Assembly: GCA_013329055.1 (NCBI GenBank)
Contig: DUKY01000015.1
Coordinates: 2,339-66,338, forward strand
DNA length: 64,000 nucleotides
Origin: Nanobdellota archaeon
GTDB taxonomy: Archaea; Nanobdellota; Nanobdellia; Pacearchaeales; GW2011-AR1
Direction of reading: 5' to 3'
Each line of letters starts with the position of its first letter. Positions within the stretch are counted from its first letter, which is position 1. A model generated the notes under the pieces. It ran no database searches. It was not told the DNA's origin and saw only the letters and a program-made list of their open reading frames with translations. Made by a program: the position numbers and the translations under genes. Shown one piece after another: positions 1,373 to 31,210 of this stretch.

Positions 1373-1493
1373 TTATCTCCTTTCATCTTTATAAAATAGG
1401 ATTCTAAGAATCCATGATTCTATGAGAAGAATTATTGCCTTTATGAATCTTATAGAATTTTTGGGATAAATTTTTTTAAAAAATGTCTTAAAT

Positions 1494-2609
1494 TTATTTC
1501 AACGCCTCTTCATAAATCTCTCTTAATTTCTTATTTCGTTTTTCAATTGAAAACATACCATTAATAACTTCCTTTCTTGCTTCTTTTCCCATTTTCTCTC
1601 TTAACTTTTTGTCTTTTATTAAAATTTCAGTTTTTTTAATAAATTCATTTAACATATCTTTATTCATACATTCGTAATAGTATTTTTTCCAATCTTTAGA
1701 CAAATCTACCAATAATCCATACTTTCCATTCTTTAAAAGTTCAGCCTTTGCAAAAGTGTTTGATGTAACAATTGGCAATTCATATGCCATTGCTTCAGGA
1801 ACAGTAAAACCATAAGAATCTCCAAAACCTGGATAAAAAAATATGTCTGCAGAAGGATAAATTTTTTCAAATAATTCTTCTTGTGGGACTAAATCCATAA
1901 TTTTAATTTGTTTATTTTGAGAATATTTTTTTTTGAATTCTTTTGGAGTAGGGCAAATAAAAATAAATTCAATATTTGGATATTTTTTTGATAATTCATT
2001 AAAGACATAAAGAGTTTGTCTTCCTCCTTTGGCATCAAACCATCTAGCAACAAAAAGAATTTTTAAATTTTTATGAAGAATTTTTTTAAAATTTTTAATT
2101 GGTAAACCAAAATGTAAAATCTCAATTTTATCTAAAACTTTTTTATTTTCTAGGAATGCTTTTTCAAAAGATTTTTTACAATCTTCTGACCAGCAAATAA
2201 TCTTTTTGCAATATTCACTTTCTAATCGATTTTTGATTATCCATTTGCCTAATTTAGATTCTGCAATTTTTCCTCCTGCACTAACCCTATCCCAAACTTC
2301 TGTATCCACAACCCATGGTTTTTTATTTAAACTTAAACAATGTGCACAGTGAATTAAATCACAATTGGGGTTTAATGTATATGTTAAATTTGGTAATTGT
2401 AAAATATTCAAAATTTTTCTTAAGAAATTCTTAAACCTTCTCATAGCTTCAAATCTCTTGGATGAACCAATAATCTGCATTTTTTGTTTATTTGATTTTT
2501 TATAATTAACATAAGCCACATTTTTTGGAGGATATTCTAAAATATTTTTATAATAAGAACTATCTGGGAATTTCCAAGGATATTGCAAATGTATTTTGAT
2601 TTGTTTCAT
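1494..2609 (-). CDS. Glycosyltransferase, GT-B fold (GT4/GT1-like)
   Basis: C-terminal GT1 signature: SYGFTVPEAMAYELPIVTSN...LVD. Confidence 0.7.
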   Translation of the reverse strand: MKQIKIHLQYPWKFPDSSYYKNILEYPPKNVAYVNYKKSNKQKMQIIGSSKRFEAMRRFKNFLRKILNILQLPNLTYTLNPNCDLIHCAHCLSLNKKPWVVDTEVWDRVSAGGKIAESKLGKWIIKNRLESEYCKKIICWSEDCKKSFEKAFLENKKVLDKIEILHFGLPIKNFKKILHKNLKILFVARWFDAKGGRQTLYVFNELSKKYPNIEFIFICPTPKEFKKKYSQNKQIKIMDLVPQEELFEKIYPSADIFFYPGFGDSYGFTVPEAMAYELPIVTSNTFAKAELLKNGKYGLLVDLSKDWKKYYYECMNKDMLNEFIKKTEILIKDKKLREKMGKEARKEVINGMFSIEKRNKKLREIYEEALK

Positions 2610-2642
2610 AATATTTATTAATGAAGTTAAGTTATAAATTTT

Positions 2643-3479
2643 ATGAAAAATAAAACAATGAGTCTAAAATTAACAACAGATAAATTAAAATATCAAAATT
2701 TAAATAAGCAGGAAAAAAACCAGCAGTGGTGGGAAGAATTGCCTATGACTTATGAAGATTGGGATTCAAAAAAAAGAATTCCCGAAACAAAAGAAGATTT
2801 TTTAGAAATTGAAAAAAGATTTTTAGAAGAAAGTCCTTTTATTAAAAATCAATTTAATTTTAAAAGATTCAAAAATAAAAAAGTTTTAGAAATCGGTTGT
2901 GGGTCTGGAGCTGTTAGTTGTTTATTCGCAAAAAATGATGCAAAGGTTACAGCAGTAGATATCACCAAACAAGCCATTAATCTCGTAAAAACAAATGCGA
3001 AATTACAATGCTTGAATATTAATGCTTTACAGCAAGATGCCGAAAAATTAACTTTTGCAAAAGAAAATTTTGATTATGTTTTTTCCTGGGGGGTATTGCA
3101 TCATTCTCAAAATACTTTAGATGCATTTAAACAAGTGGAGAGAGTTTTGAAAAAAGGTGGTTCTGGTTTAATAATGGTTTATAATAAAAATAGTGCTAGA
3201 TATTATATTAACGGATTAAATTGGTTAATTTTAAAGGGAAAAATTTTCAAAGGATATAATCTGAGAAATGTTCAAGATTTCTATACTGATGGGTATTATC
3301 ATAGACATTTTATTCCAAATGAATTAAAACAAGAATTGGAAAAACTTGGATTAAAATGTACTAAAGTATTTACAACGCACATGGGTCATAGGATGCTTCC
3401 GTTTGCCCCCCTATGGTTTGAAAAATGGATTAAGAATAATTATGGGTGGTTGTTAGTTATAGAATTTGAAAAAAGGTAA
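2643..3479 (+). CDS. Class I SAM-dependent methyltransferase
   Basis: Motif I VLEIGCGSGAVS, then the acidic loop AVDIT and FDYVFSWGVLHH. Confidence 0.75.
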   Translation: MKNKTMSLKLTTDKLKYQNLNKQEKNQQWWEELPMTYEDWDSKKRIPETKEDFLEIEKRFLEESPFIKNQFNFKRFKNKKVLEIGCGSGAVSCLFAKNDAKVTAVDITKQAINLVKTNAKLQCLNINALQQDAEKLTFAKENFDYVFSWGVLHHSQNTLDAFKQVERVLKKGGSGLIMVYNKNSARYYINGLNWLILKGKIFKGYNLRNVQDFYTDGYYHRHFIPNELKQELEKLGLKCTKVFTTHMGHRMLPFAPLWFEKWIKNNYGWLLVIEFEKR

Positions 3480-3499
3480 ATCTTTCATTTCTATTATTA

Positions 3500-4219
3500 C
3501 TATAATATTCTAACTGTAACTGCTCCACCATTTCTATGTAGATAACCAATATATTCATACTTTATTTTGTTTTTTTTCACAAATTCTTGAAAGGCTTTGA
3601 ACTCCCCTTGTTTCCAATTAGCATGGTTAAAATAATCATCAAATAAAATAATTGTACCTGATTTTATTTTATGACCTAATAAGTCCAGCACTGTTTTAGC
3701 AGAAGAATATAAATCTCCATCCATATGAATAAAAGAAATCTTTTCATTATTTGCTTTTTTTAAATATTCCTTTATACCTTCTTCGAACCATCCTTTTATT
3801 AATCGAACATTGGAGTTAACCTTGGGTAATTTACCTCCTAAATTAAAAACATCCTTTTCATAACCTGTTCTCCAATCTTCTGGAAATCCTACAAATGAAT
3901 CAAAACCTATAACTGTTTTATTTGTGAAACTTGAAATAAGATTAATTGTATCACCTTTATACACTCCAAATTCTAATATATCCCCCTCTTTATCAGCACT
4001 ATTGACCGCATGTTTGAAAAACTCCGGAATGGTTTTAAAACTTCTAACCTTTGGCATATTTTTTAAAATATATTCTGCTGTTTCTTTCGCAGCAATATTA
4101 CTTATTTGGCATTCCAAGTTAATTATATTATTTAGATATACTCTTTCAGTTATTTTGTAAACATATTTATGCAACATTCTGTCTATTCTTTGTTTTATAT
4201 TCATATTACTAATCATCAA
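3500..4219 (-). CDS. TylF / macrocin-O-methyltransferase-like sugar O-methyltransferase
   Basis: GDILEFGVYKGDT, IHMDGDLYSS and ILFDDY are typical of the TylF (Methyltransf_24) family. Confidence 0.7.
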   Translation of the reverse strand: MMISNMNIKQRIDRMLHKYVYKITERVYLNNIINLECQISNIAAKETAEYILKNMPKVRSFKTIPEFFKHAVNSADKEGDILEFGVYKGDTINLISSFTNKTVIGFDSFVGFPEDWRTGYEKDVFNLGGKLPKVNSNVRLIKGWFEEGIKEYLKKANNEKISFIHMDGDLYSSAKTVLDLLGHKIKSGTIILFDDYFNHANWKQGEFKAFQEFVKKNKIKYEYIGYLHRNGGAVTVRIL

Positions 4220-4345
4220 AATTAATTTAAAAATATTTGTGCATTTTAATCTCTTATTTAAATGATTTTTTTCTATTTCCTTATTAAATCTAAAATAAAT
4301 TTAATCTTTAGAAAATTTAATAAATCTTCTTTGTGCTTTAATAGT

Positions 4346-4726
4346 ATGAACAAAATAATTTCTGGGAATATTAACAATGATATAAAAAATAATCCCAAAA
4401 AAAATGGTTGGTTTATGGGTCATTTTATGAATGACAATTCTCCTTTCAAAAATAGTGATTTTGAAATAAAATGGGGAAATCATAAAAAAGGTATTATTAA
4501 ACCCATTTTAGGATTAAATAAAACTGCTAAAACCATGAGCATTTTAATTAGTGGGAAAGTTCTTATTAAATTTACAGAAGAAAAAGAAGTAATACTCTCA
4601 AAGCAAGGAGATTATGTCTTTTGGGGTGCTGGTATATATCATGGATCCGAAGCATTAACAGATGCAGTTACATTAACTATTAGATGGCCTTCTATTCCAA
4701 ATGATCAAGAACTTTTTAAAAAATAA
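4346..4726 (+). CDS. Cupin-fold protein. The start is moved to the internal ATG at 4346.
   Basis: The track ORF 4262-4726 begins in low-complexity sequence. From MNKIISG onward the beta-rich pattern (WGNHKKG...ISGKVLIKF...GDYVFWGAGIYHGSEA) looks like a cupin. Confidence 0.45.
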   Translation: MNKIISGNINNDIKNNPKKNGWFMGHFMNDNSPFKNSDFEIKWGNHKKGIIKPILGLNKTAKTMSILISGKVLIKFTEEKEVILSKQGDYVFWGAGIYHGSEALTDAVTLTIRWPSIPNDQELFKK

Positions 4727-4852
4727 ATTTATTTTGAAATCTTTCCTTAAAAATAACTTATCTCTAAATGTTGCACTTTACTAGTGATTTAAGATATTAT
4801 AATAACACTTCAGAGATTATATACTTATCATCTTATTTTATTTTCTATAAAC

Positions 4853-4922
4853 TATAAATGTGTAAAATTATAAATGTGTAAAATTATAAATGTGTAAAAT
4901 TATAAATGTGTAAAATTATAAT
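4853..4922. repeat. 16-bp tandem repeat (tataaatgtgtaaaat), 4 full copies plus a partial copy
   Basis: Exact copies at 4853, 4869, 4885 and 4901, with a partial copy from 4917. Lies about 35 nt upstream of the ATG at 4956. Each unit carries a TATA-like ttataaat. Confidence 0.95.
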
Positions 4923-4955
4923 AATATTAATAAACTTATATTTATTTATCAAATA

Positions 4956-6125
4956 ATGAGTAAAAAAAATGTTGATATTGTTTATGCTGTTGCATCTAAA
5001 CTAGGAAGTATTGGGATTGGAACAATTGCATATCATGCTATCAAAAAAGTTAATGATTCTCCGAATCTTTCTTATAATATTTTTTGTAGAGGTTATGATA
5101 ATAAATTAGATTTAAAATCAAAAAGCATTAAATCTTATGGATATTTAGAAACAATTTCATTGCCACTTAGATTTTTAGAAAAAAGTTTAGGATTAACATT
5201 AAATCCATTTAAATATATAAATTATTTTTTTGGTAAACTAATTAATAAAAATCTTCCTAATTGTAAGATTTATCATACCTGGGTTGGATTTGCTCCTGAA
5301 GCAATAATGAATGCTAAAAAAAATGGTGCTACATTAATCTTAGAAGGGGCCAATAGTCATCCCTTAAATTATTCAAAAATTTTAAATAAAGAATATAATA
5401 AATTAGGATTAAAAGAATTTTTAATAGATCCGAATTCATGGGAAAAACAATCTGAAATACTAAAAGAATTTGATTACGTGACCTGCACTTCTGATTTTGT
5501 TTATAATTCTTTTTTAGAAAGAGGTTTTAGTAAAAAACAATTAATCAAAATGCCTTATGGTGTTGAATTAAAAAATTTTAAAGTTAAGAATCATGTTAAC
5601 AAAAAATTAAAGTTTGTTTTTATTGGAAGTATACAAGTTAGAAAAGGGATTTACTACTTATTAAAAGCATGGGATGAGTTAAAATTGAAAGATGCTGAGT
5701 TAATTATTGTTGGAAGAGTTTGGGCTGATGCAAAAAAAATAGTTGATAAATATAAAGATAATAATACGATTAAATTTGTTGGCTTTGAGTCAAATCCTCA
5801 AAAATATTTAGAGAGTTCTGATGTTTTTGTTTTTCCTACTCTTGAAGAGGGGTCTGCCCTTGTCACATATGAGGCTATGGCCTCAGGTTTGCCATTAATA
5901 ACAACATTTAATTCTGGTACTATTGCAAGAGATAAAAAAGAAGCATTAATTGTTCCCGCAGGAAATGTTGAAGCGTTAAAAGAAAAAATAAAGTATCTTT
6001 ATGATAATCCCAAAATTATTTCTAAAATGGGAAAAGATGCAAGAAAAAGGGTTGAACAGTTTTCTTGGAAAGATTATGGGGAAAGAATTGCTAAATTTTA
6101 TGAAGAAATTTTAAATAAAAAATGA
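4956..6125 (+). CDS. Glycosyltransferase family 4 (GT-B)
   Basis: VFVFPTLEEGSALVTYEAMASGLPLITT... is the EX7E-type GT4 signature. Confidence 0.8.
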   Translation: MSKKNVDIVYAVASKLGSIGIGTIAYHAIKKVNDSPNLSYNIFCRGYDNKLDLKSKSIKSYGYLETISLPLRFLEKSLGLTLNPFKYINYFFGKLINKNLPNCKIYHTWVGFAPEAIMNAKKNGATLILEGANSHPLNYSKILNKEYNKLGLKEFLIDPNSWEKQSEILKEFDYVTCTSDFVYNSFLERGFSKKQLIKMPYGVELKNFKVKNHVNKKLKFVFIGSIQVRKGIYYLLKAWDELKLKDAELIIVGRVWADAKKIVDKYKDNNTIKFVGFESNPQKYLESSDVFVFPTLEEGSALVTYEAMASGLPLITTFNSGTIARDKKEALIVPAGNVEALKEKIKYLYDNPKIISKMGKDARKRVEQFSWKDYGERIAKFYEEILNKK

Positions 6126-7102
6126 TTAATGGCAAAATTTTAATTACAGGGGGGGCAGGATATATTGGTTCACACGTTGTTAGGCATTTAATAAATGAGG
6201 GGATAAGCCCAAGTGACATTGTTATTTTTGATAATTTAGAAAGAGGAAATATTGAAATGATTCCAAAAGAAGTAATATTTGAAAAAGGAGATTTGCAAAA
6301 TAAAGATGATATTAAAAAAATATTTTTGTTGAACAAAATTTCTTACGTAATTCATTTTGCAGCATATGCTTATGTGGGGGAAAGTATGGTTTTTCCGGAA
6401 AAATATTTTGAAAATAATGTTTGTGGGGGATTGAACTTATTGAATGCTATGATTGAAAATAATGTAAAAAAGATAGTTTTTTCTTCTAGTTGTGCAATTT
6501 ATGGGAATCCTAAGGTTCTTCCGATAATGGAAAACAATGATAAAATTCCTATTAACCCTTATGGTCTATCAAAATTAATGTTCGAAGAAATTTTGAAATG
6601 GTATGATAAAATTCATGGTATGAAAAGTATTTGTTTAAGATATTTTAATGTTGCTGGTGCGGGAGATGGGATTGGTGAGAAACATGAACCTGAAACTCAT
6701 GTAATCCCTCTTCTTATTCAAGCATCAATTTCAGAAAATGAATTTAAAATTTTTGGTGATGATTATAAAACTCCTGATGGGAGTTGCATTAGGGATTATG
6801 TGCATGTTTCAGATTTAGCTGATGCTCATTATAAAGCATTGAATTATTTAATCTCTAAAAATGAATCTAATCAATTTAACATTGGTAATGGTAATGGAGT
6901 AAGTATATTTACTCTTATCAAAAAAGTTGAAGAAATTACTAGGAAAAAAGTAAAATTTGTTCTTCAACAAAGAAGAGAAGGAGATCCCCCTATCTTAACC
7001 TCCAATTCAACAAAAGCAAATGAAATTTTAAACTGGAAAGCAACAAAAGATATTAATGACATTATTAAAGATGCTTATCTTTGGGAATCAAAAAAAATTT
7101 AA
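6122..7102 (+). CDS. galE: UDP-glucose 4-epimerase
   Basis: ILITGGAGYIGSHVV, SSSCAIYG, YGLSKLMFE (YxxxK), DGSCIRDYVHVSDLA. Length 326 aa. Overlaps the upstream GT by 4 nt. Confidence 0.8.
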   Translation: MINGKILITGGAGYIGSHVVRHLINEGISPSDIVIFDNLERGNIEMIPKEVIFEKGDLQNKDDIKKIFLLNKISYVIHFAAYAYVGESMVFPEKYFENNVCGGLNLLNAMIENNVKKIVFSSSCAIYGNPKVLPIMENNDKIPINPYGLSKLMFEEILKWYDKIHGMKSICLRYFNVAGAGDGIGEKHEPETHVIPLLIQASISENEFKIFGDDYKTPDGSCIRDYVHVSDLADAHYKALNYLISKNESNQFNIGNGNGVSIFTLIKKVEEITRKKVKFVLQQRREGDPPILTSNSTKANEILNWKATKDINDIIKDAYLWESKKI

Positions 7103-7162
7103 CCTTGAATCTTTTCTTTAAAGGACACATAAAATTTAAAAGTTGTTTTATTCTAAAATAAT

Positions 7163-8212
7163 ATGAAAAAAGAAATAAAAGTGAAATTAAATGGATTTTC
7201 TGGGCAATATGAAAACCCTTCGGATTACCTTAAAAAATATTTCCCTATAAAAGTTTTTAATGATAATTTTAATGTCAAATTTGTGAATAATCTCGATGAA
7301 GCAGAGATTATCTTTGAGTCTACTGTGCGTAGTAGTGATTATAAATTTTTAAATGAAAAGAAAAAAAAAGTAATTATTATTTCAGGGGAAGATTTATTTA
7401 AAGAAAGAGACGTTTTTAATCTAATTGAATCTGTTGTCCATAAACTAGGGTTTAAAGAAGAGAAATGGAAAATTATGGATAAAATAGACTCTGTTCTTCC
7501 AAAATTTGTATCAAGTATTCCAATAATTTATTTCTTTCCAAAATTTTTAAAATATGTTAAAAAAATTTCACGTGGAGAGATAAAAAATGCATATGCTCTT
7601 GTTCAAAATGATATGAATGGGGAGAATATTTTCATCCTTCCCTGCTTTTTTCATACTCTTTATTATGACCTGCCTAAATTAATTAAAAATAATAATAAAA
7701 AAATACAAGATAGAAAAAAATTTTGTGCTTTTATTGTTTCAAGTAATTCTTCAAGAGAAAGAGTTCATTTCTTCAAAAAATTGTCTAAATACAAAAGAGT
7801 AGACTCTTATGGGAAGGTTCAAAATAATATGGGCAATCAATTATTCAAATCAAATTGGAATACAAATAATGAGGTTTATAAAAATTATAAGTTTGTAATC
7901 GGTTTTGAAAATAATTTTGCAAAGGAGTATATCTCTGAAAAAGCACAAGTTCCTATGCTTTCAGGTGCAATTCCAATTTATCGTGGGGCTCCAAACATTC
8001 ATGAATATTTTAATACAAAATCTTTTATTAATTATGATGATTATGGAAGTGATGATAAGGTGATTAAAAAGATCATAGAATTAGATCAAGATGATGAAAA
8101 ATATCTTAAAATGGCAAATGAGCCTTGGTTTGTAGATAATAAAATCCCTAAGATTTTTAAAGAAAAAGAAATGGAATTAATTAAATTTTATAAAAAAATA
8201 CTAGAGTCATAA
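7163..8212 (+). CDS. GT10-family alpha-1,3/4-fucosyltransferase
   Basis: FCAFIVSSNSS.RERVHFFKKLSKYKRVDSYGK and YKFVIGFENNFAKEYISEK match the two conserved GT10 FucT motifs. Confidence 0.75.
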   Translation: MKKEIKVKLNGFSGQYENPSDYLKKYFPIKVFNDNFNVKFVNNLDEAEIIFESTVRSSDYKFLNEKKKKVIIISGEDLFKERDVFNLIESVVHKLGFKEEKWKIMDKIDSVLPKFVSSIPIIYFFPKFLKYVKKISRGEIKNAYALVQNDMNGENIFILPCFFHTLYYDLPKLIKNNNKKIQDRKKFCAFIVSSNSSRERVHFFKKLSKYKRVDSYGKVQNNMGNQLFKSNWNTNNEVYKNYKFVIGFENNFAKEYISEKAQVPMLSGAIPIYRGAPNIHEYFNTKSFINYDDYGSDDKVIKKIIELDQDDEKYLKMANEPWFVDNKIPKIFKEKEMELIKFYKKILES

Positions 8213-8328
8213 TACCTTTGATATTCTTTTAAAAACAAACTTTTTATTGATAACAATAAATTATAATAAAGTATATAAACCTTATTTTATGTTTTGTGCT
8301 ATGGAAAAAGGATTGGTTAAATTCTAAT

Positions 8329-9630
8329 ATGAAATCTAGTTTTATTGTTACTAGTAGCAAACAAAATTATAAACCTTTTAGAAATCAACCTTTAGGGGAG
8401 TTATATTTATCGACAATCCTAGAGCAACATTTTAAAGATCAATTGGATGTTTCTATGATTGATTTAAGGTCAATAAATCCTGATGATGCAATTTATCACG
8501 TTCCAGAAAGGGATGTTTATATGTATTCAGTTACAACACTTGATTATTTGGATACTAAAAGGATAGTTGGTGAAATTAGACAAATATATCCTAATGCAAA
8601 ACATATTGCTGGTGGACCACATATTGAGGCACTGCCAGAAGAATCTTCAAAGATTTTTGATGCTATCTCTCTTGGTAAAGGCGAAGAATCAATAAAAAGA
8701 ATGATTGAGGATATCTCCAATTCAAGGTTAAAAAATTTGTATAAGCAAGAGGGAAATATTGATTTTTCTTCATATCCTTATGCTTCAAGAAAATTTCTTC
8801 CAAAATCTGCAATAGCACAATCTGGAATTTTAAATGGGGAGAATCGCGATTTAAATGGGACTTCAGTTTTGTTTTCAAGAGGATGTCCTTTTCAATGTTA
8901 TTTTTGTGCAAATCAAAATAAGGGTAAAACAATTTTTACCCCATTTGAAGTTATGGCTGAAGAGATTGCATATTTAAAAAGAGAGTATGGGGTTGAGGCT
9001 TTAGCTATTAAAGATGATAATGGAATACCCGTAAATAAGAAAATTGCTAAACCTTATTTAGAAACCATTGCTAAAGCTGGAGTTAAATGGAGAGGTCAAA
9101 GTAGAGCTAATGGAATTAGTAGGGATTTTGTTAAACTTGCTAAAGAGTCTGGATGTGTCGAAATTGCAGTAGGAATTGAAAGTGTCTCTGAAAAAGTATT
9201 AAAAAATATAAATAAGAAAATAGAATTAGAGCCTGCAAAAAAATATTTAAAAATGCTTAAAGAAGAAGGAATAGATCGAAGATTATTACTTATCACTGGG
9301 CTCCCCGGAGAACCAAAAGATATTGCAGATAGAACAATAGAATTTATTAAAGAGACTGAACCTTCTTCTGTTTTGTTTTCAATACTTTGTCCTTTGCCTG
9401 GAACTGAGATGTATAGAAATCCTAAGAGATTCGGGATGAAAATTGATTATAATGTGCCTTTTGATTGTTATATCCCTTCAGTTGGAAGATTTGACGAGAA
9501 TGAAAAGCCCAGACAAATATTTGAATATGAAGAAGTAACCCCTTTTGGAAAAGGAATGTCTATGGAAGAGATTTTTAAGAACCATGCTAAAGTTCAAGAT
9601 TTTTTAAGGAAAAATAATTTAATTTTTTGA
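8329..9630 (+). CDS. B12-binding-domain radical SAM enzyme (rSAM-A). Start moved to the ATG at 8329.
   Basis: N-terminal cobalamin-binding-like region ending in HIAGGPH. SRGCPFQCYFCAN is the CxxxCxxC cluster motif. The track start at 8296 is GTG. Confidence 0.8.
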   Translation: MKSSFIVTSSKQNYKPFRNQPLGELYLSTILEQHFKDQLDVSMIDLRSINPDDAIYHVPERDVYMYSVTTLDYLDTKRIVGEIRQIYPNAKHIAGGPHIEALPEESSKIFDAISLGKGEESIKRMIEDISNSRLKNLYKQEGNIDFSSYPYASRKFLPKSAIAQSGILNGENRDLNGTSVLFSRGCPFQCYFCANQNKGKTIFTPFEVMAEEIAYLKREYGVEALAIKDDNGIPVNKKIAKPYLETIAKAGVKWRGQSRANGISRDFVKLAKESGCVEIAVGIESVSEKVLKNINKKIELEPAKKYLKMLKEEGIDRRLLLITGLPGEPKDIADRTIEFIKETEPSSVLFSILCPLPGTEMYRNPKRFGMKIDYNVPFDCYIPSVGRFDENEKPRQIFEYEEVTPFGKGMSMEEIFKNHAKVQDFLRKNNLIF

Positions 9631-9778
9631 GAGGTTATTTTTCTGATTTTATTAAAAAACAAATTAATTTTATATGATTAATATTCATTTTTTTAGATTA
9701 TTATTTATCTGTCAAAAATATTTAAAATGCATTTTTAAATATACATAATTTTAAAAATAAAAATTTCATATCCAAATT

Positions 9779-11167
9779 ATGGTTAGTGAAAAATGTAATC
9801 CTTTTGAAGAAGGACAATTAGATTTAATGCTGATTAATCCTAGTCTTGATTTTAAACAAGATAGGAAAATTATTGATTCTCTAAGAGTGAATCAAGAAAT
9901 CCCTAGACAAATGGCTGCACAAATTGGTATAGGGTATTTACTGGCAGCAGCAAAAAAAGAGAATTTGAAAGCAGAATTTATTGATATGGTTGCTTATGAA
10001 ACTTCTGTAAATAGTCTTTTGGATTATATCGATGAAAAAAAACCTTCTGTGGTTGGTTTAAGTGCTTTTACAGTACAAGTCAAATCTGCCGGAAATATTG
10101 CGGATAAAATAAAAGATAGATTCCCCGAGATTAAAATCGGTTTAGGTGGTCCCCATGCTACTGCTATGCCTAAAGAAACTTTAGATGAATTCAAAGGCTT
10201 TGATTTTGTCGTGTGTGGTGAAGGAGAAAAAATTATTCCTCAGTTATTAAATTCTAAATTATCTGAAATTAAGGGGGTTATTACCAGAGGAAAAAAAGAC
10301 CTTTCTTATGACCGAATTCAGAATCTTGATGAACTTGCTTTTCCCGCTTGGGAAAAATTTGACCTCTCAAGATATCCTGGTGCTGATCCTCATGGTACAA
10401 ATCAAGAATTGCTTTTAAGTACAAGCAGGGGTTGTGCAAATAATTGTGTTTTTTGTGCTCGTCCTTATGGAAAAAATAGAATCTATCGTTCAAATGAATC
10501 AATTCTTGGAGAATTAGAGAGAAATATAAAAGATTTTGGATGTGAAGCAGTTAATTTCTGTGACGAAACTTTTACTGCAAATATTGAATATAGTTCTGAA
10601 CTTTTTAATGAATTCATTAAAAGAGGATTAAATAAAAAAATTCGATGGAGTTGTGAAACAAGAGTTGATACCGCAACACCTGAACTTTTTAAATTAATGA
10701 AAACTGCTGGATGTTATTATATCTTTTTTGGTTTTGAAAGTGGAGATGATGACATGTTAAAAAAAGCAGGTAAGGGGTTTAATGTTGAAAGAATAAAAAA
10801 ATCTATTGGGTGGGCTAAAGATGCAGATATTGTTTGTGCCGGAAGTTTCATTTTAGGATTGCCTGGAGAAACAGAAGAAACAGCTAGAAAATCTATTGAA
10901 TTAGCAAAAGAATTAGATATTTATTCAACAACATTTCCAATTGCAGTTCCATTTCCTGGAACTGTTATGAGAAAGATGGCAGAGCGTGGACAATCTGGAC
11001 TTAAAATTTTAACTAACAATTGGGATGATTATGGCAAGCAATATCCTGGAGTAATGGAAAGTAATACATTGAGTATTAATCGTCTTAGAGAATTACAAAA
11101 TATTGCTTATACTTATAATCCTAAAAAAGAATTTCCAACGAGTCTTCTAACAAAATTAGGACAATAG
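9779..11167 (+). CDS. B12-binding-domain radical SAM enzyme (rSAM-B)
   Basis: VGLSAFT...GLGGPHAT (B12-like domain), STSRGCANNCVFCARP (CxxxCxxC), GFESGDD. Confidence 0.8.
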   Translation: MVSEKCNPFEEGQLDLMLINPSLDFKQDRKIIDSLRVNQEIPRQMAAQIGIGYLLAAAKKENLKAEFIDMVAYETSVNSLLDYIDEKKPSVVGLSAFTVQVKSAGNIADKIKDRFPEIKIGLGGPHATAMPKETLDEFKGFDFVVCGEGEKIIPQLLNSKLSEIKGVITRGKKDLSYDRIQNLDELAFPAWEKFDLSRYPGADPHGTNQELLLSTSRGCANNCVFCARPYGKNRIYRSNESILGELERNIKDFGCEAVNFCDETFTANIEYSSELFNEFIKRGLNKKIRWSCETRVDTATPELFKLMKTAGCYYIFFGFESGDDDMLKKAGKGFNVERIKKSIGWAKDADIVCAGSFILGLPGETEETARKSIELAKELDIYSTTFPIAVPFPGTVMRKMAERGQSGLKILTNNWDDYGKQYPGVMESNTLSINRLRELQNIAYTYNPKKEFPTSLLTKLGQ

Positions 11168-11186
11168 ATTAAAAATTTTAATTAAA

Positions 11187-12137
11187 TTAACTTTTTATAT
11201 TCTCCTTATACCAATAAATTGTTTTTTGAATCCCCTCCTCCAAAGAAACTTGTGGTTCCCATCCAAAATTTTCTTTTGCTTTAGAACAATCAAGAGCTAA
11301 TTTTGTTTTAATTGTAGGTTTTGTGGAGTCATATTCTATCCCTAAATTTTTCCCGGAAATATCAATAATTTTTTTAACAAGATCACTTACTGAAATAGAT
11401 TTACCTAAACCAACATTAACCAATTCATACGGTGTTTGTTGTTTATCAATAGCTTTAGAGATAAAATCTACCATATCCAATACATATAATAAATCTCTTT
11501 CTTCTTCTCCGGTTCCCCAGACATTAATTTTATTTCCTTCCTTTGCCTGCATAACTTTTGTAATTGTAGCTCCAAAAACATGAGATTTTTCTAAATCAAA
11601 TCTATCATATGGTCCGTAAAGATTTGAATGTCTCATTGCAGTAAATTTAGTCTCTCCAAAATTTGAAAATAATTTGCACATATCTTCTAAATAAACTTTC
11701 ATTTTTCCGCAAGCAAGATATTTTTCGGGGATTTTTTCATGAGAAAATGAATCTTCTTTTACAGGGATATCACTTGAACCATACATTGTTGTACAGCTAG
11801 GGAAAATAACATGCGAAACTCCTTGTTCAAAAGCTTCTCTAAATATCAATGTATTCATAATAACATTTTCAGTTGTATGCACGTAAGGTCTATCAATTAT
11901 ATCTTTGGAACCAGTACAATAAGCAGCTGCCTGAATAATTATATCTTTTCCTTTAATAATTCTATTAACATCTTCTTTTTTTGTTAAATCTGCTTCAAGA
12001 AAATTTATTTTTGAATTGTTATAAGGCATTGATTTAAAATAAGTTCCAAAAACTTCATAACTCTCTTTATCGGAAAAATATTCTGCAACATTTCTCCCAA
12101 TAAATCCTGTTGCTCCACAAATTAAAATTTTTTTCAT
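11187..12137 (-). CDS. NAD-dependent sugar epimerase/dehydratase (extended SDR), paralog 1
   Basis: ILICGATGFIGRNVA Rossmann motif. 316 aa. Close paralog of 12825-13778. Confidence 0.75.
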   Translation of the reverse strand: MKKILICGATGFIGRNVAEYFSDKESYEVFGTYFKSMPYNNSKINFLEADLTKKEDVNRIIKGKDIIIQAAAYCTGSKDIIDRPYVHTTENVIMNTLIFREAFEQGVSHVIFPSCTTMYGSSDIPVKEDSFSHEKIPEKYLACGKMKVYLEDMCKLFSNFGETKFTAMRHSNLYGPYDRFDLEKSHVFGATITKVMQAKEGNKINVWGTGEEERDLLYVLDMVDFISKAIDKQQTPYELVNVGLGKSISVSDLVKKIIDISGKNLGIEYDSTKPTIKTKLALDCSKAKENFGWEPQVSLEEGIQKTIYWYKENIKS

Positions 12138-12150
12138 TTTTTAAATCTCA

Positions 12151-12828
12151 TTATTTTTTAAATTCTTTTGGTCGACCATCAATAATTATGTCCTCAATAT
12201 TTTTTGTATTATAATGTGTATAAATTTTTTTTGCTAATTCTTTTGGGTCTAAACCATATGTGAATTCTGGTCTTGTTTTTATTCTGGTAGGATATACTCC
12301 AATAACATATATTCCATTCTCTTTTGCTTCTAACTTAAGTGTATCTGTAAAACCTTTTAATCCCCATTTATTAGCACAATGAATTGTTCTAAATTTTTGA
12401 TTAGTAATTCCAGAAAAAGAATTAATATTTATAATCGTCCCTTCATTTTTTTTTAAAAAATGTTCATAAATCCTTTGAGTAATTTGAATGGGTGAAATAA
12501 GATTAATTATAATTGATTCATAAGTTTGTTCAGGAGTTCTTTGATTTAATGGTAAACCAGGGCATGGGGTTCCAGCATTATTAATAAGCACAGAAATATC
12601 TTTTCTTTTGGCTTCGCTATATAATGCCTTTATTGTTTCAGGATATTTTAAATCCCCTCGAACAACAATTCCTTCAACTCCATATTTAGAAACTTCTTCT
12701 TGGACTCTTTGCAAATCTTTTTCATCCCTTCCATGAAGAATAATGTTGTATCCATTTTCCGCAAAGACTAATGCTAGTTCTTTTCCTAATCCTTTACTTG
12801 AGCCAGTTATTAATGCTGTTTCATTCAT
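12151..12828 (-). CDS. Classical short-chain dehydrogenase/reductase, atypical at the active-site Tyr position
   Basis: ALITGSSKGLGKELA (TGxxxGxG), NNAG, NINSFSG. The expected YxxxK position reads HCANK. Confidence 0.7.
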   Translation of the reverse strand: MNETALITGSSKGLGKELALVFAENGYNIILHGRDEKDLQRVQEEVSKYGVEGIVVRGDLKYPETIKALYSEAKRKDISVLINNAGTPCPGLPLNQRTPEQTYESIIINLISPIQITQRIYEHFLKKNEGTIININSFSGITNQKFRTIHCANKWGLKGFTDTLKLEAKENGIYVIGVYPTRIKTRPEFTYGLDPKELAKKIYTHYNTKNIEDIIIDGRPKEFKK

Positions 12829-13778
12829 TTTATATTTTCCTTATACCAATCAATTGTTTTTTGAATCCCCTCATCCAAAGAAACTTTTGATTCCCATCCA
12901 AAAACTTCTTTTGCTTTAGAACAATCAAGGGCCAATTTTGTTTTTATTGTCGGTTTTGTTGTATCGTATTCTATTTCTAAATTTTTTCCTGAAATATCAA
13001 TAATCTTTTTAACAAGATCACTTACTGAAGTAGATTTACCTAAACCAACATTAACTAATTCATACGCTGTTTGTTGTTTTTCAATTGCAGTTTCAATAAA
13101 TTTTACAAGGTCATCGATATAAAGTAAATCCCTTTCTTCTTCTCCTGTTCCCCAAACTTTAATCTTGCTTCCGTCTGGTGCTTGCATAACTTTAGTAATT
13201 GTAGCTCCAAAAACATGTGATTTTTCTAAATCATATTTGTCATATGGACCATAGATATTGGAATGTCTGAATACTGTATGTTTTGTTTTTCCCAATCTTG
13301 AAAAAAATTCACAAGCCTTTTCTAAACTAACTTTCATCCATGCAGCACCAAAATATTTATCTTCAACTTCTCCTGTAAAATCTGTCTCTTTTAATGGTGC
13401 ATCGTTCCATGGAGGATACATAACTGTACAACTTGGAAATATAAAGTTTTCAACAGAATTTTCAAATGCAGACCTCAATAATAAATGATTTGTGATAGCA
13501 TTATCTGTGACATGTATGTAAGGTTTACTAATTATATCTTTTGCTCCTGATGTTGTTGCGGACATTTGAATAACTATGTCTTTTCCTTTAACAACTCTAT
13601 CAACATCTTCTTTTTTTGTTAAATCGGCTTTAAGAAAATTTATCTTTGAATTGTCATAAGGTATTGATTTAAAATAAGTTCCAAAAACTTCATAATTCTT
13701 TTTATCCGAAAAATATTCTGCAACATTTCTTCCGATAAATCCTGTTGCTCCGCAAACTAATATCTTTTTTTTATTCAT
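12825..13778 (-). CDS. NAD-dependent sugar epimerase/dehydratase (extended SDR), paralog 2
   Basis: ILVCGATGFIGRNVA. The N- and C-terminal thirds are nearly identical to 11187-12137, while the middle is diverged. Confidence 0.75.
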   Translation of the reverse strand: MNKKKILVCGATGFIGRNVAEYFSDKKNYEVFGTYFKSIPYDNSKINFLKADLTKKEDVDRVVKGKDIVIQMSATTSGAKDIISKPYIHVTDNAITNHLLLRSAFENSVENFIFPSCTVMYPPWNDAPLKETDFTGEVEDKYFGAAWMKVSLEKACEFFSRLGKTKHTVFRHSNIYGPYDKYDLEKSHVFGATITKVMQAPDGSKIKVWGTGEEERDLLYIDDLVKFIETAIEKQQTAYELVNVGLGKSTSVSDLVKKIIDISGKNLEIEYDTTKPTIKTKLALDCSKAKEVFGWESKVSLDEGIQKTIDWYKENIK

Positions 13779-14770
13779 TTTGTTTTAAATACATCATACC
13801 TTTTATTAATAATCTCTTTGTTCTCTTTATACCACTCCATAGTTTCTTTTATCCCTTCTTCTAAAGAAATTTTGGGTTTCCATCCAATTAATTCTTCTGC
13901 TCTGGAAATATCAAAAATTCTTTTTTTGTCTCCAGACGGTTTATCTATTAACCATTTAATTTCTGGTTTTTGATCAAGATTGCTAACTATTGTTTCTACT
14001 AAATGTTTAATAGTATATCCACTTCCACTTCCAAGATTCATTGGTTTAAATGGTCCTGGGCAATTTTCAACTGCCATAAGCATCCCTCTTGCAACATCTT
14101 TTGCATGAATAAAATCTCTAAGTGGACTTCCATCTCCCCAAACTTCAAAAGGATTGTGCCCTTGCATTGCTCTATGAATCAATGAAGGAACAACCATTGA
14201 ACTTTCTGGATCAAAATTATCATAAGCCCCATAAACATTTGCTGGTCTTACAATTGCAATTTTATCCCATCCATACTCTTTTGCATATGTTTCAGCTTGA
14301 AGTTCACCAACTCTTTTTGCCCATCCGCCATACCAATCATTTTTCGATGGAAATGTATCCCAAACATCATCTTCTTTAAAAACTTCTGCAGGAGAATATA
14401 CACCGATTGTACTTGTATAAAGAAATCTTTCAACACCTTCTTTGTGTGCTGCTTCCATCATATTAGTATTAAATCTTAAAAAATTAACCATTATTGTCGA
14501 CGGTCTTTCTTGAACTGTTTTTGGAGAACATTTTATACCAATTAAACTAAAAACAAAATCCATACCTTTACAAGCTTTTGCACAATTTTCATATTCTCTT
14601 AAATCATATTGCATAAATTCTGTATTTGGGTGAACTCTTGATTTATCACATAAATCTGCAACCCTAACATTTGATCCCCTATTAACTAAATCTTCAACAA
14701 CACATTTTCCAATCATTCCTGCTCCCCCTGTAACTAAGACATTTTTATTTTTGTAAAAATTATTATCCAT
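13775..14770 (-). CDS. NAD-dependent sugar epimerase/dehydratase/reductase. Start moved to MDNNFYK.
   Basis: VLVTGGAGMIGKCVV. The ATG at 14770 lies 1 nt after the stop of the upstream aminotransferase, so the longer track ORF would overlap it by 41 nt. Confidence 0.7.
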   Translation of the reverse strand: MDNNFYKNKNVLVTGGAGMIGKCVVEDLVNRGSNVRVADLCDKSRVHPNTEFMQYDLREYENCAKACKGMDFVFSLIGIKCSPKTVQERPSTIMVNFLRFNTNMMEAAHKEGVERFLYTSTIGVYSPAEVFKEDDVWDTFPSKNDWYGGWAKRVGELQAETYAKEYGWDKIAIVRPANVYGAYDNFDPESSMVVPSLIHRAMQGHNPFEVWGDGSPLRDFIHAKDVARGMLMAVENCPGPFKPMNLGSGSGYTIKHLVETIVSNLDQKPEIKWLIDKPSGDKKRIFDISRAEELIGWKPKISLEEGIKETMEWYKENKEIINKRYDVFKTK

Positions 14771-14771
14771 T

Positions 14772-15917
14772 TTATTCTCCCCCAAAATATTCATGCAACT
14801 TTTTAGAAGCATAATCTAAATCTTTTTTTGTTAAAAATTGATGAATACCAAAATGAAGTCCATTATCTCCGATATATTCTGCTTCGGGAAATTCACCTTT
14901 TTTATACCCTAAATATTCAAAAGCTCCATGTTGTGTTGGCATGCTTCCAAAATTTCTTTTGCATTGTATCCCTTTTGATTCTAAAAACTCATATAATTTT
15001 GCATAGTTGTGTTTTGGATCTTTAAGGGTGATGCTAAAAGCATGAGGAGAAACAACTTCATGAGGTTCTTCTTGAACAAAATATGCAACATCTTCTAAAT
15101 CTTTTGTTGCTTGAGTTAAATAAATTAAATTATCTTTTCTTTTTTCAAAAATTTCCCAAAAGTTTTGAATTTCCGGAATACCTATTGAAGCAGTTAAATC
15201 ATTCATTCTGAAATTAAGACCATACCTTAAATGATCAAAATAAAGTGAACCTGGTTTTCTTCCGTGATGTTTTACTGAATCTGTGATATCTCGAATTTGT
15301 TTTGAATTTGTAGAAAGCATTCCCCCGTCCCCACATGAAACAATATGTGCAACATAATAACTAAATGCAGCAGCATCTCCAAATGTCCCTAAAAATTTAT
15401 CTTTATATTTTCCCCCATGAGATTCACAGCAATCTTCAATAATTCTTAAACCATATTGCTGTGCGATATTAGTAATTTTATCCATCTCACAAGGTTTTCC
15501 CATGGTATGAACTGCCATTATTGCTCTTGTCTTTGGAGTTATTTTTTCTTCGATCAAATCAGTATTAATATTCATAGTATCTCTTTTAACATCTACAAAT
15601 TTTGGTGTAAACCCTGCAGCTCTAATACTATTTCCAACTGCTGCAAATGCAAGTGCCGGAGCAATAACTTCATCTCCTGGAAGTACTTTATCATAATTCC
15701 CCTTTGAAGCAGTGTCATATAATGTCATTAATGCCGCCATATCTGCCGCAGTTCCGGAACTCATTGCAATATTATATTTGTAACCAAATAATTTACCCCA
15801 TGATTCTTCTAATAATTTAACTTTTTCCCCCCCGGAAACTTTACTAGTCTTAACACAATCCTCCAAATATTTTTTTGCTTCTTTACTTACTTTTAAATTT
15901 CCAAATGCAATTCTCAT
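14772..15917 (-). CDS. DegT/DnrJ/EryC1/StrS-family PLP-dependent sugar aminotransferase
   Basis: Fold-type I pattern (SSGTAADMAALM, IEDCCESHG, FSYYVAHIVSCGDGGM). About 380 aa. Confidence 0.75.
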   Translation of the reverse strand: MRIAFGNLKVSKEAKKYLEDCVKTSKVSGGEKVKLLEESWGKLFGYKYNIAMSSGTAADMAALMTLYDTASKGNYDKVLPGDEVIAPALAFAAVGNSIRAAGFTPKFVDVKRDTMNINTDLIEEKITPKTRAIMAVHTMGKPCEMDKITNIAQQYGLRIIEDCCESHGGKYKDKFLGTFGDAAAFSYYVAHIVSCGDGGMLSTNSKQIRDITDSVKHHGRKPGSLYFDHLRYGLNFRMNDLTASIGIPEIQNFWEIFEKRKDNLIYLTQATKDLEDVAYFVQEEPHEVVSPHAFSITLKDPKHNYAKLYEFLESKGIQCKRNFGSMPTQHGAFEYLGYKKGEFPEAEYIGDNGLHFGIHQFLTKKDLDYASKKLHEYFGGE

Positions 15918-16025
15918 GTGAATGAATATTATAAATCATTTATAAATTTAATTATAATTAAATTGTTTATTATTTAGTAACTACAGAATCTAAAATTATT
16001 TAAATAAATATTTCATTTTTTTAAA

Positions 16026-16907
16026 ATGGAAGAATATAATTTATTAAAAAAAGATTTTTTTGGAAAAGAACAAAAAATTAATATTTATAAAAAAATTTAT
16101 GAAATAAGAGAATTTGAAAAACAAGCTAAAAAATCTTTTGATGTAGATTCAATTAAATGCCCCATTTATCTTTCAATAGGTCAGGAATCAATCTCAGCAA
16201 CTATTTCAGAATTCTTTAAACCAGATTATATCTTTACTCAACATAGGGGGCATTCAGTATATATTGCCTTTGGAGGTAACAAAGATAAATTAATTGATGA
16301 ACTTCTTGGAAAGGATATTGGGTGCAATAAAGGTAAAGGAGGTTCCCCCGGAATACAGGATTTAAATATTGGAATGATTGGACATCATGGGCTTATTGGA
16401 GAAAATGTCCCTCTTGCAGTCGGTGCAGCATTAGGGGCACCAGAAAAAAAAATTCTATGTGTATTTGGAGATGGTGCTGTAGAAGAAGATTATATCTTTT
16501 CTTCAATTACTTTTGCATTTACTCATAAATTACCAATATTATTTATCTGTGAAGATAATAATTTATCAATACTAACAAAAAAAGCAGAAAGAAGAAGTTG
16601 GGAAATAACTGATGCATTAAAAGGTATTGGTATGCCTGTAGCAGATATTCTTGATGATCCAAAATTAATCGCTCAAAAGGTAAATGAATTTAAAAATAAT
16701 TTGCCTGCATTTATCAATTGCAGGACTTGCAGACATTTATGGCATGTTGGAACCGGACAAGATGAAATACCTTCAATAGATCGGTTAAAAGAATTTAAAA
16801 ATTCATTATTAAATGAGGGAATTGATTTAAATGAATTAACTAAAATTGAAGAAAAAATTAAATTGGAGAATGAAGAATTATGGAAAAAACACTTGCCGAA
16901 ACAATAA
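16026..16907 (+). CDS. TPP-dependent 2-oxoacid dehydrogenase E1 alpha-like subunit
   Basis: TPP-binding motif VFGDGAVEEDY...ICEDNNLSI (GDG-x24-NN). E1-alpha-like length. Confidence 0.7.
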   Translation: MEEYNLLKKDFFGKEQKINIYKKIYEIREFEKQAKKSFDVDSIKCPIYLSIGQESISATISEFFKPDYIFTQHRGHSVYIAFGGNKDKLIDELLGKDIGCNKGKGGSPGIQDLNIGMIGHHGLIGENVPLAVGAALGAPEKKILCVFGDGAVEEDYIFSSITFAFTHKLPILFICEDNNLSILTKKAERRSWEITDALKGIGMPVADILDDPKLIAQKVNEFKNNLPAFINCRTCRHLWHVGTGQDEIPSIDRLKEFKNSLLNEGIDLNELTKIEEKIKLENEELWKKHLPKQ

Positions 16908-19326: not shown

Positions 19327-19890
19327 ATGATGAAAAAAGCACTTATTATAACAGGTAATCTTGTTCAGGATCATGAATTTATTTATCCTTATTATCGATT
19401 AAAAGAAGAGGGTTTTCAAGTTGTTACAGCATTAAAAGATGCAAAATTCTGTGTAGGAAGTTTAGGAACAAATATCCCCTCAGACAAAGATGCAAAAGTT
19501 ATATCTTATGAAGAAATGAAAATCGGAGATTTTGATTTAATCGTTATTCCTGGAGGAGCTAAATGCATGGAATATCTAAGACAAAATCAATTAGTTTTAG
19601 ATTTCATAAATAAATGGAATCAAGAAGGAAAAATTATTTCTAGTATTTGTCATGGTGCACAAATGCTTATTTCTTCGAAAATTGTTAAGGGAAGAAAAAT
19701 TTCTGGATATTATAGTATAAAAGATGATATAAATAATGCTGGAGCAATATATGTTGATGCTCCTTTTGTGACTGATAAAAATATTGTTAGTTGCCCACAT
19801 TACAAATATTTAGGGGATTGGATGAAAGAAACTATTAGGCTTTACAAAGAAAAAAATGGTTCAAAAGATTCTTCAAACGGACTTAGATAA
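19327..19890 (+). CDS. DJ-1/PfpI family (class I glutamine-amidotransferase-like) protein
   Basis: LVIPGG...SICHGAQMLI nucleophile-elbow Cys-His. Confidence 0.7.
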   Translation: MMKKALIITGNLVQDHEFIYPYYRLKEEGFQVVTALKDAKFCVGSLGTNIPSDKDAKVISYEEMKIGDFDLIVIPGGAKCMEYLRQNQLVLDFINKWNQEGKIISSICHGAQMLISSKIVKGRKISGYYSIKDDINNAGAIYVDAPFVTDKNIVSCPHYKYLGDWMKETIRLYKEKNGSKDSSNGLR

Positions 19891-29768: not shown

Positions 29769-29830
29769 TCAAAGTTATATATATAAATAGTTATGGAAAA
29801 GGTTTTAAACATCTAACTTAAATAAGTTTT

Positions 29831-31129: not shown

Positions 31130-31210
31130 TTTATTTATTCAATAAATTTAAAAATTTTAAAAATAATTATAATCTATTATAAAAAAGAATGAAGGAAATT
31201 TTCAATTAAA

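Follow-up and report, generated by a model that had tools for sequence, protein, structure and literature searches.

Four radical SAM genes in a glycan island

We analysed a 64-kb window (the whole stretch of 64,000 nucleotides (nt) from contig DUKY01000015.1 of a Nanobdellota archaeon) that carries four genes for class B radical S-adenosylmethionine (SAM) enzymes, here called A, B, C and D. Profile searches of the window proteins delimit a single glycan island from ~450 to 42,500, and all four genes lie within it. Five genes in one direction, GT4–epimerase–GT10–A–B, occupy 4956–11167, with A and B in tandem as the last two. A preliminary description of this DNA had reported two tandem class B radical SAM open reading frames (ORFs) after a fucosyltransferase gene and two further copies at 23398 and 29831, making four in the island. 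This was accurate: the gene ahead of A is a predicted GT10 enzyme, and C and D carry the same two Pfam domains as A and B. The four genes are as follows.

8329–9630, + strand: ORF A, class B radical SAM protein, 433 amino acids (aa); ATG start at 8329, alternative GTG at 8296
9779–11167, + strand: ORF B, class B radical SAM protein, 462 aa
23398–24693, − strand: ORF C, class B radical SAM protein, GGAH variant, 431 aa
29831–31129, + strand: ORF D, class B radical SAM protein, 432 aa

Translation of A probably begins at the ATG at 8329, since its homologues (best 120 of 320) are mostly 433 aa long and nearly all cover 97–100% of the 433-aa form. This ATG lies 116 nt beyond the end of the GT10 gene, and 148 nt separate A from B. 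AT-rich, TATA-like stretches occur upstream of both genes.

All four proteins score above the Pfam gathering cut-offs for a B12-binding domain (PF02310, cut-off 32.1) and for a radical SAM domain (PF04055, cut-off 29.5). The PF02310 scores ranged from 39.8 bits in A to 70.1 bits in B, and the PF04055 scores from 69.9 bits in A to 98.7 bits, with B at 90.0 bits. Domain E-values of 1e-10 to 1e-28 exclude a chance match. The motifs read AGGPH and CPFQCYFC in A, LGGPH and CANNCVFC in B, GGAH and CPFKCTFC in C, and GGPH and CPGSCNFC in D. The three cysteines of CxxxCxxC are invariant across the A and B family alignments. The cobalamin-binding-like N-terminal domain and CxxxCxxC core first described for A and B are thus confirmed by both Pfam profiles.

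We modelled A and B with AlphaFold2 (predicted local distance difference test scores of 92.0 and 89.4, respectively). The predicted fold places an N-terminal cobalamin-type Rossmann domain against a [4Fe-4S]/SAM TIM-barrel core. In Foldseek searches both models matched all the solved class-I B12-radical SAM enzymes (TsrM, MgmA/QCMT, OxsB, TokK and CysS) with query-normalised TM (template modelling) scores of 0.63–0.72, which, with the Pfam domains, supports the class B architecture. Structure 9CCB belongs to the glutamine C-methyltransferase that acts on methyl-coenzyme M reductase. The top matches of A were TsrM, AprD4, CysS, MgmA and TokK; MiaB and RimO were also among the fold matches of the two models.

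A–D share pairwise identities of only 27–29% and are therefore old paralogues. A recent tandem duplication of A and B was considered and rejected, as the two are 28% identical and are found apart in the other genomes examined. The tandem arrangement itself was not seen in the loci compared from other organisms, and the A–B pair is particular to the host lineage. C and D are labelled by NCBI only as "B12-binding domain-containing radical SAM protein".

Orthologue families and conserved sugar-gene neighbourhoods

By identity, A, B and D are each assigned to a tight orthologue family of their own, with members at least 50% identical across phyla. B has 2553 homologues at E≤1e-10; its best 120 are 50–80% identical and ~460 aa long, and those with names come from Pacearchaeota, Elusimicrobiota, Chloroflexi, Moranbacteria and Omnitrophota. 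The best 120 of the 320 A homologues are all at least 50% identical, and the named ones come from Elusimicrobiota, Deltaproteobacteria, Thermoplasmatales, Omnitrophota and Planctomycetota. Most D matches at 53% identity or above are nameless; the named ones all belong to DPANN archaea or to the candidate phyla radiation (CPR/Patescibacteria). D identities fall gradually to 43% and then drop to 41% or less. C has 659 representatives at E≤1e-30, of which the best is 53% identical. GT10 proteins of 335–336 aa are listed within the 90%-identity cluster of D, probably a clustering artefact of a fused gene call.

What surrounds these orthologues is best read against the sugar genes of the window itself. 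In the list, SDR stands for short-chain dehydrogenase/reductase, NDP for nucleoside diphosphate, PLP for pyridoxal phosphate and ThDP for thiamine diphosphate.

4956–6125, + strand: GT4 glycosyltransferase (PF00534, 99.8 bits)
6122–7102, + strand: UDP-sugar epimerase-like SDR (PF01370, 197.9 bits)
7163–8212, + strand: GT10 fucosyltransferase-like glycosyltransferase (PF00852 Glyco_transf_10, 79.2 bits, cut-off 23.9)
11187–12137, 12825–13778 and 13775–14812, − strand: three NDP-sugar epimerase/reductase SDRs (PF01370/PF16363)
12151–12828, − strand: short-chain dehydrogenase, adh_short (PF00106)
14772–15917, − strand: DegT/DnrJ/EryC1-family PLP enzyme, aminotransferase or 3-dehydrase (PF01041, 273.9 bits)
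16026–16907 and 16880–17788, + strand: two-subunit ThDP enzyme, E1 alpha-like (PF00676/PF02775) and E1 beta-like (PF02779/PF02780)
18288–19265, + strand: NDP-sugar 4,6-dehydratase-like SDR (PF16363, 256.5 bits; top models GMD/RmlB, below cut-off)
21323–23371, + strand: sugar-1-phosphate nucleotidyltransferase and GHMP sugar kinase fusion, HddC/HddA-like (PF00483, PF00288/PF08544)
38878–39459, − strand: GmhA (TIGR00441 gmhA, 215.4 bits, over the cut-off of 209.45)
39492–40103, + strand: GmhB-like phosphatase (GmhB models, 131–159 bits, under cut-off)
40080–41432, − strand: Wzx-type polysaccharide flippase (PF01943, PF13440)

B orthologues (50–66% identical) adjoin sugar genes in four unrelated lineages, including Pacearchaeota, Elusimicrobiota and Omnitrophota metagenome-assembled genomes (MAGs). 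Their neighbours encode NDP-sugar SDRs, DegT enzymes, a nucleotidyltransferase (NTP-transferase) with a GHMP kinase, glycosyltransferases, Wzx and a two-subunit ThDP enzyme (E1_dh or Transketolase_N plus Transket_pyr). The dehydratase at 18288–19265 has homologues (39–49% identical) no further than 10 kb from the B orthologue in loci L002, L083, L093/94, L095 and L096; in L083 and L093/94 the homologue is the gene directly upstream. L083 also encodes a DegT enzyme 64% identical to the product of 14772–15917 and a fusion protein 52% identical to that of 21323–23371. The same dehydratase, SDR and DegT set recurs in four B loci from IMG/VR. The B loci carry one to five additional, different B12-radical SAM genes, none of them orthologous to A, C or D.

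The A orthologues tell a similar story. In MAGs of Thermoplasmatales (L088) and Omnitrophota (L089), they end a run of E1 alpha–E1 beta–SDR–SDR–(adh_short)–SDR–GHMP kinase–DegT, which mirrors the gene content of 11187–17788 in the window, including its SDR block. A GT2 gene stands between DegT and the A orthologue in L088, and NUDIX or NTP-transferase genes follow the A orthologue in both loci. The adh_short genes belong to the module in the window, L002 and L089.

For D, an orthologue on a Pacebacteria (CPR) contig (L091) is accompanied by a transketolase-like pair, two SDRs, a GT10 gene and a Wzt/Wzm exporter. In a DPANN relative (L092, GCA_030620045.1), the D block at 1029–17296 is syntenic with 28836–36832 of the window: the shared order is GT-A, D, FkbM methyltransferase, GT25, AsnB, methyltransferase, GT4, WecG. 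No STT3 gene was found in the 64-kb window; the L092 block runs up to a gene for an STT3/AglB oligosaccharyltransferase of 982 aa, suggesting N-glycosylation as the process that the island supplies. Class B radical SAM genes repeatedly have a GT10 gene a few kb away or less: beside A (7163–8212) and near the D orthologues in L091 (741–1751) and L092 (1029–2162). The gene beside D at 28836–29768 was tested as a second GT10 and is not one.

A recurrent partner was the ThDP enzyme. In 9 of 13 distinct loci, from bacterial and archaeal phyla (L002, L083, L084, L086, L088, L089, L091, L093 and L172), an A, B or D relative has a ThDP pair no more than 10 kb away. In L172, an IMG/VR contig, A-like (40%) and B-like (38%) genes share one module that holds both kinds of ThDP pair. 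E1-like enzymes add two-carbon branches to keto-sugars in some antibiotic sugar pathways. By analogy, the ThDP pair may branch a keto-sugar in this way; alternatively, the transketolase-like versions may supply sedoheptulose-7-phosphate for a heptose route.

As a control, we used 80 loci with 27–46% identical paralogues, drawn from a scan of genome collections for the B family; with degenerate patterns, that scan had returned, among the matches listed, mostly 27–36% identical paralogues and not orthologues. The sugar genes of the orthologue cassettes were rare in the 80 control loci. The sugar-gene association is therefore specific to the orthologue groups. Taken together, these comparisons establish the architecture and fold of the enzymes, their orthologue families, and an NDP-sugar/ThDP neighbourhood conserved in bacteria and archaea. 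Such cassettes were seen in DPANN archaea, CPR/Patescibacteria, Elusimicrobiota, Omnitrophota, Thermoplasmatales and others.

Several further observations were made in these loci. PF13524 (Glyco_trans_1_2) proteins of 315–403 aa are repeatedly encoded a few kb or less from a class B radical SAM gene (L083, L084, L090 and L092); another, of 558 aa in L083, is cut at the locus end. In many loci (L083, L084, L013, L020, L037 and L070), between four and nine distinct B12-binding radical SAM genes stand in a row. Such multi-enzyme arrays seem to be common in uncultured anaerobes, mostly with no recognisable sugar context. In L002 (Pacearchaeota), DJ-1/PfpI and cupin genes at 11608–13012 stand beside the B orthologue, and their products are 56% and 46% identical to those of the window. 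The IMG/VR contigs L093–L096 and L172 (44–350 kb), which are catalogued as viral, carry B relatives 50–57% identical and an A relative 40% identical. These regions may be cellular or proviral rather than virus-encoded, and we use them as extra context and not as evidence of viral carriage. A search of viral contigs with D gave no matches.

Within the window, the island encodes GT4, GT10, GT25 and WecG glycosyltransferases, three SAM methyltransferases, nine epimerase/dehydratase-type SDRs, two DegT enzymes, the E1 alpha/beta-like ThDP pair, a PglD-like acetyltransferase, AsnB, and NUDIX, DJ-1/PfpI, cupin and HAD proteins. The Wzx-type flippase marks it as a lipid-linked glycan assembly system. 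The PF00852 match of the predicted GT10 enzyme, whose catalytic domain is C-terminal, spans profile positions 2–136 of 182. For the DegT enzyme at 14772–15917, the top NCBIfam match is RfbH (CDP-6-deoxy-4-keto-hexose 3-dehydrase) and not an aminotransferase model (220.9 bits, below the cut-off of 423), which hints at a 3-deoxygenation step in the pathway. The ThDP pair matches the alpha and beta subunits of pyruvate dehydrogenase E1 best, both below cut-off. Entry into heptose nucleotides would be provided by GmhA, the GmhB-like phosphatase and the fusion protein, whose top NCBIfam matches are HddA (246 bits) and HddC (191 bits), both under cut-off. A GDP-D-glycero-alpha-D-manno-heptose-type pathway thus appears to be encoded in a DPANN archaeon.

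The window has a G+C content of ~28%. Its ribosomal proteins L3 and L4 are of archaeal type, and proteins of the window have identical counterparts in 'archaeon GW2011_AR13' and 'Nanoarchaeota archaeon' MAGs; the host is therefore a DPANN archaeon, in keeping with the archaeal host implied in the preliminary description. Other features of the window are as follows.

53988–54717: three tRNA genes (Gly-TCC, Arg-CCT, Leu-AAG)
58271–58385: free-standing 5S rRNA gene
60447–62185: L3–L4 region

The L3–L4 ribosomal-protein operon begins downstream of the tRNA and 5S rRNA genes; the window holds no 16S or 23S rRNA genes. A full-length bacterial-type MutS with all five domains (47304–49715) and MutL (50519–52249) flank an AsnC/Lrp regulator. 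The longest-ORF start of 13775–14812 overlaps the adjacent gene by 41 nt, and the public call uses a later start (331 aa versus 345). DJ-1/PfpI and cupin genes occupy 19327–21255, with a HAD phosphatase after them.

Possible cobalamin use and proposed chemistry of A–D

We propose that A–D are class B radical SAM tailoring enzymes for unusual nucleotide-activated sugars of a DPANN cell-surface, probably N-linked, glycan, a reading that, taken whole, we consider evenly poised. Its parts differ in strength. The substrate class, sugars, comes from gene association, and gene context gives good support to a role in sugar tailoring. Methylation at carbon and the use of cobalamin are plausible proposals.

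The pathway would run in four steps. GmhA, the HddA/HddC-like fusion and GmhB would first produce a GDP-heptose, possibly with a parallel NDP-hexose route. The 4,6-dehydratase, the DegT/RfbH-like PLP enzyme, the SDRs and the ThDP enzyme would then convert it to a deoxy, amino or branched intermediate. In the third step, a 5'-deoxyadenosyl radical formed by the radical SAM enzymes would take a hydrogen from an unactivated carbon of the sugar, either in a nucleotide-linked deoxy, amino or branched heptose or hexose or in the growing lipid-linked glycan. Most likely, the methyl group of methylcobalamin would quench the substrate radical, giving C-methylation as in GenK, GenD1, MoeK5 and Fom3. Finally, the GT4, GT10, GT25 and WecG enzymes and the Wzx flippase would assemble and export the glycan.

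Do these enzymes bind cobalamin? The N-terminal domain of B alone matches the cobalamin domain of TokK (E=1.2e-5), that of A matches the isolated cobalamin domain 4Q37 (E=5e-5), and that of D matches both (E ~3e-3). A signature, GGPH..P...D....GEGE, is common to the N-terminal domains of A, B and D and to TokK and 4Q37. The same three domains gave no match to the N-terminal domain of AprD4, even at E≤1. AprD4 is a cobalamin-independent sugar 1,2-diol dehydratase whose Rossmann domain is only remotely related to B12-binding domains, and from AprD4 and ArsL it is clear that a Rossmann domain of related type may be free of cobalamin (PMC12931638). In the solved B12-radical SAM enzymes, cobalamin is bound base-off with no protein ligand, so no single residue of the DxHxxG type confirms or refutes binding. 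The inspection of cobalamin-binding residues proposed in the preliminary description therefore has no diagnostic ligand to look for. On this evidence we judge cobalamin binding by A, B and D to be probable. We are less sure of methyl transfer specifically, which by analogy with known enzymes seems to us a little short of an even prospect. Every functionally characterised B12-radical SAM group includes C-methyltransferases (PMC12931638).

Several results weigh against the proposal as a whole. First, none of A–D reached the cut-off of any curated NCBIfam model, so no function can be transferred by homology. The four proteins match many class B models (HpnJ, PhpK, ApyD, BchE, ladderane lipid, MJ_1487, QCMT, BzaD and AprD4), all far below cut-off. 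The closest approach to the cut-offs of the PhpK, BchE, ApyD, TIGR04013, TIGR04014, TIGR04072, BzaD, HpnR, KedN5 and TsrM-type models, none of which A–D reached, was that of B to TIGR04013 (MJ_1487), at 117 of 251 bits. Placement by profile, as the preliminary description had suggested, thus names no family. On sequence grounds, we place A–D outside every named family, in new, unnamed families within a known superfamily.

Second, the closest structural relative of B is AprD4 (6fd2; TM 0.79/0.80), followed by TsrM, MgmA, OxsB and TokK, and for each of the four radical SAM cores AprD4 ranks first or second among the sequence matches in the Protein Data Bank (PDB). Third, the N-terminal domain of C, with its GGAH motif, matched neither TokK nor 4Q37 in phmmer searches, and C is, from its sequence, the weakest candidate for a cobalamin-type domain. 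Fourth, radical methylases of the TokK/Mmp10 type place one hydrophobic residue under the cobalt (TokK W76) and another between the cobalamin and the cluster (TokK W215). In alignments of 13–20% identity, in which the mapping is uncertain, the residue aligned with W215 is polar (R228 in B; N195, nearly invariant, in A), which resembles the non-radical or non-methylating TsrM and OxsB. The residue aligned with W76 is V99 in B and L71 in A, and varies or is proline within the families. We had considered this lower-axial residue as a marker for cobalamin or methylase activity and dropped it, the position not being conserved within the A or B family. Last, no gene for cobalamin uptake, transport or salvage was found among the proteins of the 64-kb window.

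In sum, the preliminary description was partly supported. It was right on class, context and host, and it over-committed on C-methylation and cobalamin dependence. It had suggested C-methylations or rearrangements of sugars: the link to sugars stands, with A, B and D orthologues in NDP-sugar cassettes of unrelated phyla, and the C-methylation part lacks a match at any curated cut-off. The cobalamin dependence that it inferred agrees with the N-terminal domains of A, B and D and is at odds with the best whole-chain match of B, an enzyme that works without cobalamin.

We also weighed other chemistries. One is a cobalamin-dependent rearrangement of the sugar skeleton: a ring contraction, the formation of a carbocycle, or a C–C coupling with the ThDP enzyme that would yield branched or higher-carbon sugars. 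Ring contraction or carbocycle formation has been shown for OxsB. HpnJ acts in formation of the hopanoid cyclitol ether, a presumed ring contraction of a sugar-derived head group, for which ring contraction or carbocycle formation has been proposed. HpnJ (TIGR03471) is the best NCBIfam match of B (160.2 bits) and is near the top for A (96.1), C (111.4) and D (126.0), yet all of these scores fall far below the cut-off of 577.6 bits. The polar residue at the W215 position is as in members that do not methylate by a radical route. The persistent partnership with two-carbon-transferring ThDP enzymes would suit a coupling, and the presence of up to five different class B paralogues per cassette suggests a multi-step skeletal pathway. 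On the other side, no cyclitol-type or oxetane-type partner genes were recognised, and non-methylating members are a minority of the characterised enzymes; they cannot be told from methylases by sequence or structure (2026 review, PMC12931638). We regard a rearrangement as unlikely.

Alternatively, A and/or B could be AprD4-like, cobalamin-independent dehydratases. The 5'-deoxyadenosyl radical would take the carbinol hydrogen, the vicinal hydroxyl would be eliminated, and a partner SDR, with the adh_short protein of 12151–12828 as the AprD3-type candidate, would reduce the resulting ketone, for a net deoxygenation of the sugar. The fold and sequence matches described above argue for this route, as do the equal length of B and AprD4 and their common lack of a C-terminal domain. 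AprD4 acts on a sugar ring, adh_short genes accompany the modules of the window, L002 and L089, and AprD4 exemplifies a B12-like Rossmann domain that does without cobalamin. However, the AprD4 family model (NF033070) gives 59.2 bits for A, 83.6 for B, 69.6 for C and 92.3 for D against an equivalog cut-off of 500. The sequence similarity is limited to the radical SAM core, whereas the N-terminal domains of A, B and D match those of TokK, 4Q37 and OxsB and not that of AprD4. The aligned AprD4 motif is CxxxCxxxC (CPYPCRFYC), unlike the CxxxCxxC of A–D, and the cluster already holds a DegT/RfbH-like candidate for 3-deoxygenation. We consider this route likewise unlikely.

Least probable by far is a role outside sugar metabolism (lipid, ribosomally synthesised and post-translationally modified peptide (RiPP) or other peptide, tRNA, or tetrapyrrole) with an incidental location in the glycan island: sub-threshold matches to BchE, ApyD (RiPP), ladderane-lipid and MiaB-type models, the MiaB and RimO fold matches and an A orthologue in Elusimicrobiota (L090, 10001–12527) that sits outside any sugar cassette, in an isolated two-gene unit with only a PF13524 glycosyltransferase-like gene beside it, are opposed by NDP-sugar synteny that three independent families of orthologues show in phyla of both bacteria and archaea, unlike the paralogue loci, by the lack of precursor-peptide, lipid or tetrapyrrole genes near the radical SAM genes within the window, and by literature in which DPANN archaea largely lack lipid and cofactor biosynthesis.

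Sugar tailoring by A–D also has a more ambitious version. A horizontally shared, cross-domain cassette would build undescribed C-methylated and/or C-branched, higher-carbon surface sugars, and the envelope of a B12-auxotrophic symbiont would depend on corrinoids from its host or community. We offer this tentatively and are inclined to doubt it in full.

Significance and relation to known enzymes

DPANN genomes rarely encode cobalamin synthesis (PMC8421398, PMC8407392), and on the strength of that literature the host is likely unable to make B12. If the enzymes use B12, the glycan would rely on external corrinoids. A genome-reduced DPANN archaeon would then spend four corrinoid-requiring enzymes on its glycan, a concrete metabolic dependency on host or community. 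To our knowledge, every class B radical SAM enzyme so far characterised as acting on sugars belongs to an antibiotic pathway. The surface-glycan cassettes described here contain three or more separate orthologue families, none of which has a named or studied member. Organisms that carry such cassettes dominate anoxic groundwater and sediment metagenomes. We found no published description of this radical SAM/sugar cassette in the literature searched, and the setting, surface-glycan cassettes common to DPANN archaea, CPR and other uncultured anaerobes, is unprecedented. The recurrent ThDP pairing points to a defined gene set (the enzymes for GDP-heptose, the dehydratase, the PLP enzyme, the ThDP pair and the radical SAM enzymes), through which new radical chemistry and unfamiliar sugar structures could come to light.

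Among known systems, HpnJ shares with A–D the sub-threshold profile matches given above, of which that to B is the strongest. It differs in the size of those scores relative to its own cut-off, in the archaeal host found here, and in its setting, with no hopanoid genes found near A–D.

TokK, TsrM, MgmA/QCMT, CysS and OxsB have the same fold and domain order as A and B, and the profile of the B family finds its best match in the MgmA/QCMT core. TokK, TsrM, CysS and OxsB have extra C- or N-terminal domains that are absent from A–D, and identities are just 13–20%. Their substrates differ as well: TokK acts on a carbapenem, TsrM on tryptophan, MgmA/QCMT on a protein glutamine, OxsB on a nucleotide and CysS on a polyketide.

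AprD4 (PDB 6FD2), from apramycin biosynthesis, resembles B in its ~455 aa, in its N-terminal Rossmann domain joined to a radical SAM core, and in acting on a sugar. It differs in working without cobalamin, in an N-terminal sequence with no detectable similarity to A, B or D, and in its cysteine spacing.

Another close parallel is with the sugar C-methyltransferases. GenK-type enzymes modify unactivated sp3 carbons in sugars or in substrates linked to a nucleotide, and the substrate of Fom3 is CMP-activated. GenK, GenD1/GntE, Fms7, MoeK5 and Fom3 have the two-domain architecture of A–D, and GenK, GenD1, Fms7, MoeK5 and Fom3 are listed as characterised methylases (PMC12931638). GenK-type clusters carry sugar-modifying SDRs and aminotransferases alongside, as the island does. 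The two groups differ in setting: GenK-type enzymes belong to actinomycete secondary metabolism, whereas A–D form separate, unnamed orthologue families in the surface-glycan cassettes of uncultured anaerobes, CPR and DPANN archaea.

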